DNA of 64,000 bases from Dehalococcoidia bacterium (GCA_963665735.1 OY762444.1:1867547-1931546), one strand, 5' to 3'; positions 5,655 to 14,605 are shown, counted from the stretch's first letter. Notes: generated from the letters alone by a model not told the origin. Program-made: numbers and translations.

Positions 5655-5765
5655 ACCCCCACCCTAACCCTCCCCCTGGCCAGGGGGAGGGGATTTTTTG
5701 GCGTCCTTAGACGCTTCGGCAAGCAGGAGAAGGGGCTAGATTCCCGCTTTCGCGGGAATGACGGT
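5655..5765. repeat. Intergenic repeat mosaic (family 1 hairpin 5668..5692 + T run; family 2 hairpin 5739..5764)
   Basis: Direct reading. The consensus motifs are the same as elsewhere in the window. Confidence 0.8.
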
Positions 5766-7522: not shown

Positions 7523-8053
7523 GTGAATTACCTCCTGGAAAACTGGGGCAGCCTGGTGGGCGCCTTTGGCTTGGCTTTTACCATCGCAGGGGTAGCCATA
7601 TCCTTTGCGGCGTTCCGGCGGGCCGGCAAGGCCAGGGACGCGGCCAGCGCAGCCGAGGCGGCCAGCAACGAAACGCGCTTGGCGATAACCAGCGTCCTAA
7701 CAACGGTGGACTTGGAGCGGGCGATAAATTTAGTGCAGCGAGTGAAGGAGTTGCACCGGGAAGGCCAATTGAGAGTCAGCCTGGCGTTGTATCCGACTCT
7801 CCGGGCCACGCTGGTTGACATTTTATCCAGGCACCCGGCGCTTACCCCGGAATTGAACCGGCAACTCCAGGAGTCTATACTCCGAGTGTCCCAGACGGAA
7901 AGGGAAATTACAACTGCGCTCCGTGGGGGCCCGGGCCCGGCGGTACTGGAATCAGTCAACGAGACACTGAACCAAGTCCAGGAACAATTGGAGATTTTGT
8001 CCGGTTCTATCAACCAATCGTGGGGGCAATCTTTCGGCGGGCCGAGCGAGTAG
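7523..8053 (+). CDS. Hypothetical membrane-anchored protein (one N-terminal TM helix, helical remainder)
   Basis: GTG-start ORF. It has the hydrophobic helix SLVGAFGLAFTIAGVAISFAAF followed by charged helical sequence. No family recognised. It is AT-richer by eye than its neighbours. Confidence 0.5.
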   Translation: MNYLLENWGSLVGAFGLAFTIAGVAISFAAFRRAGKARDAASAAEAASNETRLAITSVLTTVDLERAINLVQRVKELHREGQLRVSLALYPTLRATLVDILSRHPALTPELNRQLQESILRVSQTEREITTALRGGPGPAVLESVNETLNQVQEQLEILSGSINQSWGQSFGGPSE

Positions 8054-8058
8054 ATAAA

Positions 8059-8394
8059 ATGGTCGCAAGTGAAGAAGTCGTCAAGAAGTTAATCGAAAAA
8101 ACCAAACAAGAGAAGATTCGCTGGCTGAGTACGTCATCGGCCAATACCTTCATCGCGGTGGTGGGTCAATGGTCTCTGACCGTTTCGCTGCTGCTGGATT
8201 CATACGCCTACGCTAGTGTGCGCCTTCACATCGCGGACTGGAAAGCTCAACCCATCGAAGAGTTCAGCGCGCCGGCCCACGGGGATGCCCCCATGACCCC
8301 CTTGCTGTACGAACTTCACCAGACTGCGAAAAGCATGGCTCTGGGAAGCGCTACTCAACTGGACGACTTGATGGCGGAACTGGACCAGGTTTAG
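8059..8394 (+). CDS. Hypothetical protein
   Basis: ORF 8020..8394 trimmed to ATG 8059, which lies 5 nt after the upstream stop (operon-like). No family recognised. Confidence 0.45.
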   Translation: MVASEEVVKKLIEKTKQEKIRWLSTSSANTFIAVVGQWSLTVSLLLDSYAYASVRLHIADWKAQPIEEFSAPAHGDAPMTPLLYELHQTAKSMALGSATQLDDLMAELDQV

Positions 8395-10039: not shown

Positions 10040-10230
10040 GACGACCCCCATCCCAACCTTCCCCCTGGTAGGGGGAAGGGGTATTCCAGTTTTCATTCCT
10101 CGCCTTTTCATGTCATTCTGAGCAACGCGAAGAATCTAAAATTCTTGCCTTAACCAACCCTGCCCTGACCATAGCCGAAGGGGCGTCTTGCCCGAAGAAT
10201 TTTAGACCCTTCACTTCGTTCAGGGTAACA
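10040..10230. repeat. Intergenic repeat mosaic (family 1 hairpin 10057..10079; family 5 pair 10111..10149 and 10194..10230)
   Basis: TGTCATTCTGAGCAACGCGAAGAATCTAAAATTCTTGCC and GAATTTTAGACCCTTCACTTCGTTCAGGGTAACA recur at about 32190..32300, 50590..50700, 51030..51140 and 56929..57222. Confidence 0.8.
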
Positions 10231-10326
10231 ACCAAAAGACAAGGGTAAAGACGGCGGGTTGGTGGACAAGGCGGGGTTGCCGTGCCAGTATTGGGGAAAC
10301 GCCGGGCCGAGGATTGAGCGGTTAAG

Positions 10327-13300
10327 ATGACGCAACACTTTAACGACAACGACCCAAAATTTCCCCTGCTGGCCGCCCAAATCCTTGACCGCCACGACAC
10401 CGGCCAACCCGAGGCCAACATCACCAGCGCCATCCGCGATTTCCTAACCCAGACCGACCTGGCCCAAAGCGACGAAATCCGCGAGGAAAACCCGCCCTCC
10501 GACACCTCCCGCCGCGCCGTTGACCTGACCGCCCTGGACACCTTCATCGAAGTCAAGCGGCGCATCGGCACCGTCGGCGGCCTCAACCCCAACCCCGAAT
10601 ACGTCGCCCAACTCGACGACTACCTGGCCCTGTCCCAGCAGCAGGGCCGGATGCGTATGGGCATCCTTACCGACGGCAAGCATTGGCTACTGCGCTGGCC
10701 CGGCGCCGGCCCGGTCAACGCCGCGCCCCCCTACGCCTTCATCCTGCAATCCCCCGACGGTTGGACGCCTCTCTACGAATGGCTCCGGGACCACGCCCTG
10801 GAGTCCCAAGAAAACCTGTCCTCCGACCGCGAAAACATCGCCGCCCACTTCAGCCCGGTCAGCCCCAACTACCGCCGCGACATTGCCGCCCTGTCCGACC
10901 TGTACCGCCAATCCCGGGACTATGAAACCGTCCGGGTCAAGCGGCAGCTTTGGCAAGACCTGTTGCAGACCGCTCTCGGCGAAGTCGTCACCGCCCGCGA
11001 AGACCTGGACGACCTGTTTATCCGCCATACCTACCTCGGCGCCGTCATCGGCATGGTGGTGCAGGCATCCTTCGGCATTGACATCCGCCAACTGGCCGCC
11101 GTCGAACCCGAAGACCTGCTCAACGGTCGCCGTTTCCGCAGCGACACCGGACTGCAAGGCATCGTCGAATCCGACTTCTTCACCTGGCCCGCCGAAGTCG
11201 GCGGACGGCCCATCCTGCAAACCCTGGCCCGCCGCGTCGCCAAGTTCAACTGGCTCTCCGCCCCGCCCGACATCGGCGCCATCCTCTACGAAACCGTCAT
11301 TCCCCCCAATGAACGCCGTCAGTTGGGCGAATACTACACCCCCGCTTGGCTGGCCCGCGTCATGGTCAACGAACTGGTGTCCAACCCTCTCAACCAGCGC
11401 GTCCTTGACCCGGCTTGCGGCTCCGGCGCCTTCATCGTCCAGGCCGTAACCCACTTCATCCAAGCCGCCCAGCAGACCAGTTGGGAACCCAAAGAAGTCC
11501 TGACCCGCCTCCGCGACGCCGTAACCGGCATTGACGTTCACCCCGCCGCCGTCCACCTGGCCCGCGCCGCCTGGGCCCTGGCCGCCCGCCCCGCTATCAA
11601 CGCCGCCGCTGCCGCCGGTTTCGACGCCTCCCTTTCCGTCCCCGTTTACCTCGGCGACGCCCTCCAACTCCGTTTCCGCACCGGCGATATGTTCGCCGAG
11701 AACGAAGTCACCATCCAGACCCAGGACGAGGCCAACACCGAACTGGTATTCCCGGTAAGCCTGGTGGAACGCGCCGAAAATTTCGATTCCCTCATGGCCC
11801 AAGTCGCCGAGTCCATCGAAAAAGGCGAAGACCCCGCCCTGGCCCTGGACGACCACCATATTACCGACCCCGGCGAGCGGCAGACCCTTCAAGCCACCTT
11901 CGCCGCCATGCAGCAGCTTCACCGCCAGGGCCGCGACCACATCTGGGCCTACTATACCCAAAACATGGTGCGCCCCGTCGCCCTCTCCCGCGCCAGGGTG
12001 GACGTGCTTATCGGCAATCCTCCCTGGATTAACTACAATCAGACCGTGGACGTGCTGCGGGGAGCGTTGCGCTACCTCAGCAGCAACACCTACGGCATCT
12101 GGGCCGGCGGACGCTACGCCACCCAGCAGGACATGGCCGGCCTCTTCTTCACCCGCTGCGTTGACCTCTACCTCAAAGAATTCGGCGTCATCGGCTTTGT
12201 CATGCCCCACAGCGCCTTGCAGACCGGCCAATACTCCAAGTGGCGCTCCGGCCGCTGGGGAGCCGGGAATAGCGTCAATGCCGTTTTTGCGGATTTCACC
12301 TACAAGACAGCCTGGGACTTGGAGGGACTGGAACCCAATACCTTTTTCCCGGTGCCGGCCTCGGTGATTTTTGCCCAACGCCGGACCCCGAATGCCAGAC
12401 CCTTGACCGCCAATGTAGAGCGTTGGTCGGGCCAAACCGATTCCGACAACGTGCTGCGGGAATACAGCGCCATTACCGATACCTCTGTCGCCGGCCAATC
12501 CCCCTACTCTGGACTATCCAGGAACGGGGCTACCATATTTCCCCGCTGCTTGTTTTTCGTCAACGAAACCGAAAACCCCGCCATCATCCGGGCCGGCCAG
12601 ACCGTCACCGTCACCCCCCGCCGCGGCAGCTTGGACAAGGCCCCCTGGAAAGACCTGGACTTGACCGCCATCACCAATCAGACCGTCGAGCGCACCCACC
12701 TTTTCGACGTGCATCTTGGGGAGACCGTCGCCCCCTACGTCACCCTGGAACCGTTAAGAGCTTTGCTGCCCCTGAAACAAGGCGACGCCGACCTGCCCGC
12801 CGATGAGGACGGCCCCGGTGGAATAGACCTGGGCGGACTGGAACGCCGGATGCGGGACCGCTGGCAGACCGTCAGCAATTTGTGGGATTCCAACAAGAAA
12901 GCATCCGAGAAGAAGAACTTGCTGGAACAGTTGGACTATATCCACAAATTTACGTCGCAACTGGATTGGCAACAAGATTCGGGTAATCGTCCATACCGCA
13001 TAATTTATAACAAGTCCGGTGAACCTACGGCAGCGTTGTTGAATGACGATGCAGCATTGGTCGAAAACGTCTTGTATTGGATTACTTGCAAAGATTTGGA
13101 CGAGGCCAACTACCTGCTGGCAATCATCAATAGCGACGCTTTATATCAAGCGGCCCAACCTCTGATGTCCAAGGGACAATTCGGGGCGCGGGACTTGCAA
13201 AAACACCTGTGGAAACTGCCCATCCCCGAATACGACTTCCGGCAGAAACTCCACGTCGCCATAGCCAAGGCCGGGGAACGGGCGGCGGCCGGCGCGGCGG

Positions 13301-13677
13301 AAAAGCTGGCCCGGGTGCGTCAAGAACGGGGCGACAAATTCACCGTAACCATCGCCCGGCGGGAACTGCGGGCCTGGCTGCGCTCCTCGCCGGAGGGCGC
13401 GGAAGTCGAGGCGGCAGTCAAGGCTTTGCTGGGCCAGGGCGTGGACTTTCGCGGCGTCATCACCATCGAGGCGGACAAGCGTTTCGGCAAACCCTGCATC
13501 CGGGGCCTCCGCATGACCGTCCAGGACGTAATGGAATACCTGGCCGGCGGCGAAACCTGGGCTGTAATGATGGAAGACTTTGGCCTGACCGAACCCGACC
13601 TCCACGCCTGCCTGTCCTTCGCCGCCGCCGAGGAGATGGATGACGACTACGCCCGTCTCCGTAAAGCTGTTATTTGA
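10327..13677 (+). CDS. Type IIL/IIG-like fused restriction endonuclease / N6-adenine methyltransferase with a C-terminal DUF433-like domain
   Basis: 1116-aa ORF. The N-terminus shows RRAVDLTALDTFIEVKRR ... GILTDGKHWLLR, a D-x8-E-x-K PD-(D/E)xK core. Methylase motif I is VLDPACGSGAFIV and motif IV is LIGNPPWINY, followed by a long TRD-like region. The last ~75 aa (VITIEADKRFGKPCIRGLRMTVQDVMEYLAGGETWAVMMEDFGLTEPDLHACLSFAA) fit the DUF433 pattern. Confidence 0.8.
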   Translation: MTQHFNDNDPKFPLLAAQILDRHDTGQPEANITSAIRDFLTQTDLAQSDEIREENPPSDTSRRAVDLTALDTFIEVKRRIGTVGGLNPNPEYVAQLDDYLALSQQQGRMRMGILTDGKHWLLRWPGAGPVNAAPPYAFILQSPDGWTPLYEWLRDHALESQENLSSDRENIAAHFSPVSPNYRRDIAALSDLYRQSRDYETVRVKRQLWQDLLQTALGEVVTAREDLDDLFIRHTYLGAVIGMVVQASFGIDIRQLAAVEPEDLLNGRRFRSDTGLQGIVESDFFTWPAEVGGRPILQTLARRVAKFNWLSAPPDIGAILYETVIPPNERRQLGEYYTPAWLARVMVNELVSNPLNQRVLDPACGSGAFIVQAVTHFIQAAQQTSWEPKEVLTRLRDAVTGIDVHPAAVHLARAAWALAARPAINAAAAAGFDASLSVPVYLGDALQLRFRTGDMFAENEVTIQTQDEANTELVFPVSLVERAENFDSLMAQVAESIEKGEDPALALDDHHITDPGERQTLQATFAAMQQLHRQGRDHIWAYYTQNMVRPVALSRARVDVLIGNPPWINYNQTVDVLRGALRYLSSNTYGIWAGGRYATQQDMAGLFFTRCVDLYLKEFGVIGFVMPHSALQTGQYSKWRSGRWGAGNSVNAVFADFTYKTAWDLEGLEPNTFFPVPASVIFAQRRTPNARPLTANVERWSGQTDSDNVLREYSAITDTSVAGQSPYSGLSRNGATIFPRCLFFVNETENPAIIRAGQTVTVTPRRGSLDKAPWKDLDLTAITNQTVERTHLFDVHLGETVAPYVTLEPLRALLPLKQGDADLPADEDGPGGIDLGGLERRMRDRWQTVSNLWDSNKKASEKKNLLEQLDYIHKFTSQLDWQQDSGNRPYRIIYNKSGEPTAALLNDDAALVENVLYWITCKDLDEANYLLAIINSDALYQAAQPLMSKGQFGARDLQKHLWKLPIPEYDFRQKLHVAIAKAGERAAAGAAEKLARVRQERGDKFTVTIARRELRAWLRSSPEGAEVEAAVKALLGQGVDFRGVITIEADKRFGKPCIRGLRMTVQDVMEYLAGGETWAVMMEDFGLTEPDLHACLSFAAAEEMDDDYARLRKAVI

Positions 13678-13993
13678 CAAAAACCTGTCGCCCCGGTTGC
13701 CGCGACTTTTGGCCGACCTGTTCCCGGGTTCGCTCCACGTCCAGGACGTTGACATGGGCGGGGCGCCTGACCTTGGCATTTGGGCCTACGCCATAGACGC
13801 AGGATTTACCATCGTCACCAAAGACCGCGACTACCTGGGACTAAGCGAATCGCGCGGTCATCCGCCCAAAGTCGTGCTGATTCGGCGGGGCAACTGCACC
13901 AGGTTGGAAATGGCAACCCTCCTCCGCCAACACCACCCCGACATAATCGCCCTCCACCAGGACCCCCAGCGGGGTTTGCTGCAACTGTCCTGA
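13640..13993 (+). CDS. DUF5615-like PIN-like domain protein (putative toxin/nuclease partner of DUF433)
   Basis: MTTTPVSVKLLFDKNLSPRLPRLLADLF...GAPDLGIWAYAIDAGFTIVTKDRDYLGL...PPKVVLIRRGN follows the DUF5615 pattern. ATG 13640 has GAGGAG 4 nt upstream and overlaps the upstream ORF (stop 13675..13677) by 38 nt. Confidence 0.7.
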   Translation: MTTTPVSVKLLFDKNLSPRLPRLLADLFPGSLHVQDVDMGGAPDLGIWAYAIDAGFTIVTKDRDYLGLSESRGHPPKVVLIRRGNCTRLEMATLLRQHHPDIIALHQDPQRGLLQLS

Positions 13994-14108
13994 AACCAAA
14001 AAAATCCCCTCCCCCTGACGAGGGGGAGGGTTAGGATGAGTTTAGTCCCTGCCCAACCATCTGTTACAATCAAGCAAACGCGGCAAGCCCCCCAAAGAGG
14101 TATCCAGC

Positions 14109-14465
14109 ATGGGAACATTCAACTGGCCAGTGCGGATTTCCAGCATCGACGGCCAACAATTCCGCGACGTGACAGCAGAGGTGGACACCGGCTCTTCCTA
14201 TACCACCCTGCCCGGTAGTATGCTGCGGGAGTTGGGAATCGTACCCAAGGGCCGGCGCACGTTGTTGTTGGCCAACAATCAGCGCGTTAACCTGGAGTAC
14301 GGGGAGGCGCTGGCCACCATAGACGGAGAAAGCGTCACCACTCTGGTGCTCTTTGGCGACGACCAATCCCCGGCCCTGTTGGGCGCCTACACCTTGGAGG
14401 GTCTGGCCCTGGCCGTTGACCCCGTAGCCCAGCGACTGGTTCCAACTGCGATGATTATGTACTAA
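14109..14465 (+). CDS. Retropepsin-like (clan AA) aspartic protease, second copy
   Basis: 118 aa. DVTAEVDTGSSYTTLPGSMLRELGI carries the DTG(S) active site. Its size and layout resemble 4926..5309. Confidence 0.7.
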   Translation: MGTFNWPVRISSIDGQQFRDVTAEVDTGSSYTTLPGSMLRELGIVPKGRRTLLLANNQRVNLEYGEALATIDGESVTTLVLFGDDQSPALLGAYTLEGLALAVDPVAQRLVPTAMIMY

Positions 14466-14605
14466 CATCCTCGCCAAGCCAACCCCGTCAAGACATCCCC
14501 TCCCCCTGGCAGGGGGAGGGGCCTTTCATTGGTGGACAAGCCGGGGTTGGCGTGCCAGTATTGGGACAACAGTGGGGATATTTCTGAAAGGAAGGGGAGG
14601 ACGCT

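Follow-up and report, generated by a model that had tools for sequence, protein, structure and literature searches.

Within a stretch of 64,000 nucleotides from an uncultured Dehalococcoidia bacterium (GCA_963665735.1 OY762444.1:1867547-1931546; hereafter the window, with positions counted from its first letter) we studied a two-gene unit on the plus strand that joins a restriction-modification (RM) enzyme to the components of a candidate toxin-antitoxin (TA) pair. The first gene (10327..13677) codes for a Type IIG/IIL restriction-methylase with a C-terminal DUF433 domain, and the second (13640..13993) for a PIN-like putative ribonuclease (RNase) toxin of the DUF5615 family. RM and TA systems are two classic 'addictive' defense modules. 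An earlier note on this DNA had read the unit as an antitoxin-like module tethered to the restriction enzyme. Using profile searches, structure models and comparative genomics we find that the fusion recurs in many related loci, and we tentatively propose that the RM enzyme doubles as the antitoxin of a VapBC-like pair.

The fused gene is a single uninterrupted open reading frame (ORF) of 1116 codons, in which the four parts named by the earlier note follow one another in the order it gave, each matched by profiles. The N-terminal region (10327..11106, +), which includes VDLTALDTFIEVK, is a PD-(D/E)xK nuclease with the D-X8-9-E-X-K pattern in the form D66-X8-E75-V-K77 (D66 at 10522-10524, E75-x-K77 at 10549-10557). 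An alignment of 48 orthologues revealed these three residues to be invariant, together with motif I (DPACGSG, residues 361-367, 11407-11427, +) and motif IV (NPPW, residues 564-567, 12016-12027, +) of the gamma-class N6-adenine methyltransferase module (11224..12276, +), which lies on the same chain as the nuclease and is recovered by the Pfam models N6_Mtase (9e-11) and Eco57I (3e-7). This module is followed by a target-recognition region with conserved C-terminal helices (12277..13440, +), at the end of which the untailed orthologues stop ('...LLAGG'); it shows a weak match to TaqI_C (residues 883-966), and an AlphaFold2 (AF2) model of the protein (predicted local distance difference test score, pLDDT, 70.7) places helices at residues 974-1034.

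Among defense-system models in PADLOC the protein matches REase_MTase_IIG (2e-64), and a Foldseek search with the AF2 model recovered DrdV (7lo5, 5e-11), BrxX/PglX, LlaBIII and MmeI (5hr4, 3e-7) as the nearest solved structures. The TM-scores to DrdV and MmeI are low, about 0.3, because the query is a multi-domain model with the above pLDDT; sequence identity to the solved DrdV/MmeI-type enzymes is only 10-14%. The comparison with MmeI-type enzymes made in the earlier note is correct as to the nuclease-methylase-target recognition domain (TRD) order but otherwise approximate, since DrdV matches best in structure and the MmeI-specific Pfam models stay under their cut-offs (MmeI_Mtase 19.8 bits versus 27; the other MmeI domains unmatched). 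From sequence and model together, the protein appears to be a Type IIL-like single-chain RM enzyme that is not a close relative of MmeI. The coding strand of the RM gene has a GC skew of -0.20 to -0.27 (10400-12600), versus about +0.05 in the flanks, with similar G+C content, which may be a compositional mark of foreign origin.

The last ~75 residues, assigned to DUF433 in the earlier note, contain a complete copy of this antitoxin-type domain (COG2442; residues 1045-1099, 13459..13623, +; PF04255, E = 7e-16 over profile positions 1-56 of 56, and 1.8e-17 when the tail is searched alone). The tail also weakly matches (E = 0.03) the DUF433 part of the PDB entry 5af3, whose chain is named VAPBC49. 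The domain is followed by a C-terminal extension ending in '...AAAEEMDDDYARLRKAVI' (13624..13677, +), which is dual-coding with the start of the toxin gene from 13640; its 'MDDDYxxLRxAVI' end is kept in all fused proteins. The toxin gene starts with the ATG at 13640, 4 nucleotides (nt) downstream of a ribosome-binding site read from the sequence as GAGGAG (13630..13635, +), and the RM stop codon at 13675-13677 gives a 38-nt overlap of the two genes on the same strand, as the earlier note had it.

The 117-residue product of the second gene is a member of the DUF5615 family (COG4634, Mut7-C group), with a match to PF18480 at 1.8e-30 (105 bits, profile positions 2-107 of 110) and one to PIN_10 below threshold; an ATPase domain is absent according to Pfam. 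In an alignment of 17 homologues the window toxin holds the acidic residues D13, D62 and D64, and most of the toxins retain D/E13, D62 and D64. The first acidic position, examined in nine aligned toxins from tailed loci, is asparagine in three and glutamate in one (that of locus L086; the loci compared here are designated by L numbers). A search of PDB sequences with DUF5615 recovered no relative, neither NCBIfam nor PADLOC has a model matching the tail or the toxin, and a single-sequence AF2 model of the toxin (pLDDT 42) was too low for a fold search. The two-gene unit is closed by a G+C-rich hairpin, CCCCTCCCCCTG-N-CAGGGGGAGGG (14001..14030).

To place this architecture in context, 5.8 billion proteins were searched, yielding 2369 relatives of the RM protein, of which the best 120 clusters were compared at their C-termini; in addition one genome per GTDB species was scanned, yielding 187 RM loci. 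Nearly all of these lie in Dehalococcoidia or Chloroflexota metagenome-assembled genomes, with two or three copies in several of them. Of the best 120 clusters, 95 are tailless, ending in '...LLAGG', 22 (65-76% identical) carry the same tail, and three end in a different one. The junction is in frame, '...ALLGxG' running directly into 'VD[YF]RG(T/V)ITIE...', in the 22 clusters and likewise in 13 loci whose assemblies are independent, spanning different samples and assemblers and including scaffold- and NODE-type short-read assemblies; one fused orthologue is named 'DUF433 domain-containing protein' by NCBI. A set of short 'DUF433' proteins (P0258-P0263) that we considered as free homologues proved to be 3' fragments of the fused gene.

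The earlier note had allowed that the fusion might reflect a stop codon lost, or a frameshift introduced, in this one sequence. Some related long-read assemblies (L090, L091) do have frameshifts in the same gene, but an identical in-frame junction in assemblies of such varied origin makes an assembly or annotation artefact vanishingly improbable. Moreover, selection measured by region on seven intact fused loci gave a dN/dS of 0.15 for the DUF433 tail (dS about 1.0), against 0.22 for the nuclease, 0.17 for the methylase and 0.23 for the TRD, such that the constraint on the tail is at least equal to that on the RM domains (0.17-0.23); the corresponding values for the toxin are dN 0.27 and dS 1.25. 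Given a tail dN/dS of 0.15 at a dS of about 1, the fusion is old and has been maintained by purifying selection.

We then mapped homologues of DUF433, DUF5615 and the RM protein on all fetched loci, of which 13 are tailed and 73 untailed. A DUF5615 gene overlaps the RM stop codon in 11 of the 13 tailed loci (the window, L003, L038, L053, L083-L087, L090 and L091) and in none of the 73 untailed ones (Fisher's exact test, p = 3e-12). This distribution, in which the presence of the toxin follows that of the tail, supports the view that tail and downstream gene together make up a TA unit of the DUF433/DUF5615 type, in line with the pairing named in the earlier note. The tail can also decay or disappear where the toxin is lost: L002 retains a frameshifted DUF433 remnant and has no adjacent toxin, and the RM protein of L082, which shares its genomic context with loci retaining tail and toxin, ends in '...GRGVD'. 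In a neighbor-joining tree of the RM bodies, which is distance-based and affected by TRD exchange, the tailed proteins form a grade that includes untailed subclades and a clade with an alternative tail; the most parsimonious account is that the fusion arose once, long ago, and that losses and a cassette swap came afterwards.

The junction itself bears on how the fusion arose. Its valine codon (Val1039, 13441..13443, +) is GTG in 13 of 13 fused loci (the window, L001, L003, L004, L038, L053, L083-L087, L090 and L091), and in the 11 intact fused loci a single codon is kept at only 7 of 159 invariant four-fold-degenerate columns. The GTG is thus probably a relic start codon of a DUF433 gene, and possibly an internal start today. 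Eight loci (L001, L002, L009, L047, L061, L083, L085 and L087) further carry free DUF433-DUF5615 pairs on the same strand, 1.1-5 kb 3' of the RM gene (for example at L083 8900-9828, L085 6534-7504, L087 6435-7375, L001 10454-11436, L002 10422-11377 and L047 10605-11560). In the six pairs just listed a DUF433 protein of about 200 residues, with 'LEQHK'-rich, coiled-coil-like repeats at its N-terminus, is followed by its own DUF5615 gene, and a free pair together with an RM-fused pair makes a tandem array. Extra copies of the RM 3' end (its last 35-150 codons) lie 1-3 kb downstream in some loci, and in others the gene is split by an insertion (L034 12310-12561, L047 11610-11680, L061 10507-10722, L069 8736-12058), a pattern suggesting that the conserved RM 3' end, which flanks the TRD, often recombines or exchanges cassettes.

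These features would fit a frozen accident, in which a mobile pair of DUF433 and DUF5615 genes inserted just 3' of the RM stop codon, the stop was lost, and the RM enzyme and a selfish TA pair have since worked independently. Such an arrangement could persist if a reverting stop orphaned the antitoxin, or if the old GTG start still gave enough free antitoxin. The conserved GTG, the free pairs downstream of RM orthologues and the duplicated RM 3' fragments, which point to an end that recombines often, all fit this account, as does the great abundance of COG2442-PIN pairs in Chloroflexi (PMC2701414). We nevertheless regard it as unlikely: purifying selection constrains the tail no less than the enzyme over saturated synonymous divergence, and a PIN-type gene overlaps each of at least three types of tail, DUF433 among them, that occur on two RM families.

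Three further RM-tail-PIN architectures, those of L081, of a second RM family (L088/L089) and of L074, strengthen the earlier proposal that an antitoxin module is tethered to the enzyme. L081 (P0012/13/16) belongs to the same RM family and has a tail of ~70 residues, '...RRxAWxxF...R...IYLDPDIDINDLIDEMY...', and a classical PIN/VapC gene (PF01850, 8e-19) shares 1 nt with its RM stop codon. Exhaustive HMMER searches recovered this tail module in two other settings, at the C-terminal end of a small free-standing protein of DUF2281 type (P0206), and 3' of 'HDLHNHDG...AEAFIEWA..LSFW', the methylase-module end of a second Type IIG family composed of HSDR_N_2, N6_Mtase and Eco57I with or without Methylase_S. 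Synteny links L081 to L088, where it is the second RM family that precedes the same tail and PIN gene. L089 is an intact operon (1916-6857 of contig LXNI01001502.1, with a DUF2971 gene upstream) in which a TRD-less RM protein of 750 residues with this tail is followed by the PIN gene (4-nt overlap), a DUF4145 gene and an HsdS-like gene; it was the single locus recovered in a metagenome scan with the alignment of the alternative tail. In L074 (9100-9710) the RM orthologue (59% identical) carries a third, unrelated extension of 49 residues, '...LSAAASLEEARLEREVAWEPWFRAAIRR', and its stop codon overlaps, in an ATGA, a PIN gene (PF01850, 3e-11).

The short tails of L081 and L074 have no Pfam match and no recognizable DNA-binding part, and the free relative of the L081/L089 tail has a DUF2281-type N-terminus that the fusions lack. 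Accordingly, domain replacement appears to describe their origin better than simple stop loss, and the RM body appears, as judged from these sequences, to stand where the free antitoxin has its own N-terminal domain. A search of a plasmid collection returned no record linking the RM C-terminus to DUF433, or the second RM family to the tail. Two candidates were rejected in the course of these comparisons. A shared upstream major facilitator superfamily (MFS) gene had suggested synteny of L081 with the window, and the MFS proteins proved dissimilar at phmmer E <= 1e-4. P0121 had been taken for a free ancestral antitoxin; its N-terminal 'HDLHNHDG...LSFW' is the methylase-module end of the second Type IIG family, and it is therefore a fragment of a frameshifted RM-tail ORF.

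Considering the above, the most economical role for the unit may be an addiction or gene-integrity lock, in which the RM enzyme serves as the antitoxin; this reading has the best support of those considered, though we rate it as quite possible rather than probable. Under it, the Type IIG/IIL enzyme with its nuclease, N6-adenine methylase and TRD would be made as one chain whose last ~75 residues are the DUF433 domain, and the DUF5615 RNase would be translated by coupling from the start inside the last 38 nt of the RM ORF on the same mRNA. We infer that the tail binds and silences the toxin, so that the toxin would stay neutralized only as long as RM protein of full length and correct frame is being made. 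The putatively toxic RNase would presumably be set free if the gene were lost, if its 3.1-kb RM frame acquired a nonsense or frameshift mutation, or if the protein were destroyed, and the lock would thereby stabilize the RM gene. Single-chain RM enzymes, with nuclease and methylase in one protein, are on general reasoning poor at post-segregational killing alone, and by such a fusion they would gain an addiction lock.

The genomic homes of the module touch on this reading as well. In L082, L084-L087 and L090 it is inserted into the conserved uppS-cdsA-dxr-rseP cluster, with dxr on one side and rseP on the other. This is an uncommon place for an RM gene, and the insertions have the orientation of the cluster (which also extends to ispG) and hardly any intergenic space. 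In five loci with an intact fused ORF, L084-L087 among them, and in L090, whose fused ORF is frameshifted, the fused gene begins 0-19 nt after the dxr stop codon, which leaves no space for a TA promoter or operator, and for this reason DUF433 is unlikely to act as an autoregulator at the dxr loci.

Several observations weigh against the lock. The toxins of L003, L038 and L053 are those with asparagine at the first catalytic aspartate position (LLFNQNL replaces LLFDQNL, the rest being conserved; L003 9359-9709, L038 9362-9712, L053 9347-9697) and may be attenuated or repurposed. L001 and L004 keep an intact tail without an adjacent toxin, while in L090 and L091 the fused ORF is frameshifted, possibly through long-read errors. 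Translation starting internally at the conserved junction GTG could yield a free DUF433, and the antitoxin would then no longer be coupled to the RM chain. Disrupted RM genes make up no clearly different fraction of tailed and untailed loci; both frameshift errors in long reads and the way of choosing loci confound this comparison, which is therefore uninformative as a test of an ORF-integrity lock. Finally, the experiments on toxin arrest and on neutralization by complex formation concern DUF433/PIN relatives and not DUF5615 itself.

The asparagine-bearing toxins and the tails without a toxin might instead mean that both modules have been domesticated as subunits, with DUF433 as an extra DNA-binding or regulatory domain of the RM enzyme and DUF5615 as a non-toxic nuclease or RNA-binding partner. 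DUF433 has a DNA-binding three-helix/winged-helix fold, and VapB10 binds promoter DNA (PMC2701414, PMC3834315). Yet most of the toxins keep D/E13, D62 and D64, the nearest relatives studied by experiment are true toxins (PMC5175181), and in 95 of the 120 RM orthologue clusters nearest to the window protein neither this tail nor the alternative one is present, and we therefore consider domestication very improbable.

The same architectural evidence that speaks for the lock applies equally to a guard in abortive infection, the first option named in the earlier note. Here the RM-tethered tail would keep the RNase latent until the RM enzyme was altered or destroyed, either by a phage anti-restriction protein or by proteolysis that the phage induces, and the toxin thus released would shut down translation in the manner of PrrC. 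The fusion would then supply a built-in back-up that kills the cell once restriction is disabled. In L089 the tail and PIN gene stand between the catalytic subunit and the HsdS gene, which is the position of PrrC in the prr locus, and passages of a 2025 review of RM biology treat guardians of RM systems, PrrC and PARIS among them, as an established category (PMC12707154). Other defense effectors, too, are translationally coupled to orthologues of this RM gene. In L032 (9153-14582) the stop codon of an untailed RM gene overlaps the start of a gene for a protein of 1809 residues with DEAD, Helicase_C and MZB (DUF1998) domains, which resembles a fusion of DISARM DrmA and DrmB, and the RM family may also provide the methylase of a DISARM-like system; a 105-residue ORF in L068 has the same start sequence as this protein.

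Nothing in the data, however, points to a phage trigger, and PADLOC does not include the tail or toxin among its models. The window locus lies among metabolic genes outside any defense island, and several genomes hold the module inside a housekeeping cluster. Although the data do not separate a guard from plain addiction, the lack of any pointer to a phage trigger and the stable embedding of the module in housekeeping and metabolic contexts lead us to favor the addiction or integrity lock, and to rate the guard as rather doubtful. Still more general, and likewise speculative, is the notion of a hitherto unrecognized 'RM-tethered toxin-antitoxin' class of Type IIG systems, in which the RM enzyme would be covalent antitoxin and sensor, a PIN-family RNase the executioner, phage anti-restriction or the destruction or loss of the RM enzyme the cue for abortive infection, and the RM 3' end a docking site for exchanged cassettes of tail plus toxin.

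The wider surroundings of the unit in the window are metabolic (MFS transporter, Abhydrolase_10, PrpD, molybdopterin oxidoreductase and thiamine pyrophosphate (TPP) enzyme genes). The segment that holds the RM, toxin and protease genes is bracketed by a 42-nt direct repeat (left copy 10259..10300, right copy 14529..14570, both +), whose two copies are 90% identical and the only ones within the 64-kb window, with 0 expected by chance. It is also flanked by G+C-rich hairpins near 10060-10082, 14001-14030 and 14497-14525. The bracketing repeat and the flanking hairpins suggest that the 4.3-kb segment may have been inserted, with duplication of a target or promoter region, and that elements like repetitive extragenic palindromes (REP) are present. 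Palindromes of the CCCCTCCCCCTG-N-CAGGGGGAGGG type occur after several genes, and also at 5668, 25111, 30497 and 35175. The intergenic region between the MFS and RM genes contains a 36-nt imperfect inverted repeat (10111-10230; 75% complementary, 48-nt spacer) that looks like a small insertion of the miniature inverted-repeat transposable element (MITE) type, between a hairpin and the 42-nt repeat. A promoter scan found no sigma-70-like site 5' of the RM start and did not call the 42-nt repeat as a promoter, and Rfam and tRNA searches of the window gave no hits. Two overlapping ORFs 5' of the MFS gene (7523-8394, +; 176 and 124 residues) have no Pfam match.

Downstream of the toxin gene lies an ORF for a clan-AA aspartic protease (14109..14465, +; Asp_protease_2, 25.2 bits versus a cut-off of 24.3; TIGR03698 at 8e-9, below cut-off), which the earlier note had mentioned as a retropepsin-like neighbor on the same strand. 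Homologues occur near untailed RM orthologues (L035 260-415, minus strand; L041 3695-4033; L080 10347-10697), and of about 90 loci, 4 have a small clan-AA protease gene a few kb or less from the RM orthologue, in varying position and orientation. No protease homologue was found near any other tailed locus, and the gene is for this reason not part of the RM-toxin system.

The RM-fused antitoxin appears to be previously undescribed, as the earlier note had supposed: no description of it was found in the literature searched, 'DUF5615' does not occur in the top-ranked literature retrieved for both DUF names, and the searched passages of the 2025 review on RM biology hold no mention of RM-antitoxin fusions (PMC12707154). 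A direct physical link between RM and TA systems had been proposed but not demonstrated as of a 2017 survey of PIN-like nucleases, and a covalent RM-antitoxin, if borne out, would be the simplest possible form of one. The interchangeable tails and toxins would also offer a clean system for studying how antitoxins are re-wired onto new carriers, and the findings supply a search rule, namely an RM gene with an unexplained C-terminal extension that is overlapped by a small PIN gene.

Seen against known systems, the unit is plausibly a type II TA pair in which the antitoxin has become a portion of a Type IIG RM enzyme. Its closest studied counterparts are two DUF433-containing pairs. In Synechocystis the DUF433 antitoxin VapB10 neutralizes the PIN toxin VapC10, binds its own promoter and is degraded by ClpXP2 (PMC3834315), while in the Rv2018-Rv2019 pair ('VapBC45') of Mycobacterium tuberculosis Rv2019 cleaves rRNA and mRNA and is neutralized by the DUF433-containing Rv2018 (PMC5175181). 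As in the window, the PF04255 antitoxin of these pairs is encoded upstream of, and overlapping, a toxin of the Mut7-C/COG4634 branch, to which PIN_10 also belongs among the PIN-like nucleases (PMC5499597). Unlike in the window, their antitoxins are small (~70-110 residues), separate and labile, whereas here the domain is the C-terminal 7% of an RM protein of 1116 residues, in frame with a body of 1038 residues in 13 loci, several of which have no room for a dedicated promoter or operator.

From the side of the restriction enzymes, the fused gene shares with the MmeI/DrdV-type Type IIL (Type IIG) enzymes the succession of an N-terminal D..ExK nuclease, a gamma-class N6-adenine methylase and a TRD, but none of the solved members has an antitoxin-type tail or an overlapping toxin gene. 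The 2017 survey of Matelska et al. reported no PIN-like nucleases with Type II RM systems, and noted that a direct TA-RM interaction had not been demonstrated (PMC5499597); it does describe a DUF433-PIN_10 pair beside hsdM/hsdS in Belliella. Such Type I-linked cases resemble the window in that PIN-type toxins are transcriptionally coupled to RM subunits, but they are separate genes beside the Type I subunits, whereas here the antitoxin lies within the RM polypeptide. With PrrC-EcoprrI, and also RloC and PARIS, the unit would share a latent RNase embedded in or attached to an RM locus and possibly dependent on the state of the RM enzyme. However, PrrC is an anticodon nuclease with an ATP-binding cassette (ABC) ATPase, held non-covalently by the Type Ic complex and triggered when T4 Stp inhibits EcoprrI, whereas in the present case the part of the inhibitor would fall to an antitoxin domain covalently joined to a Type IIG enzyme, with a PIN-like protein of 117 residues as effector.

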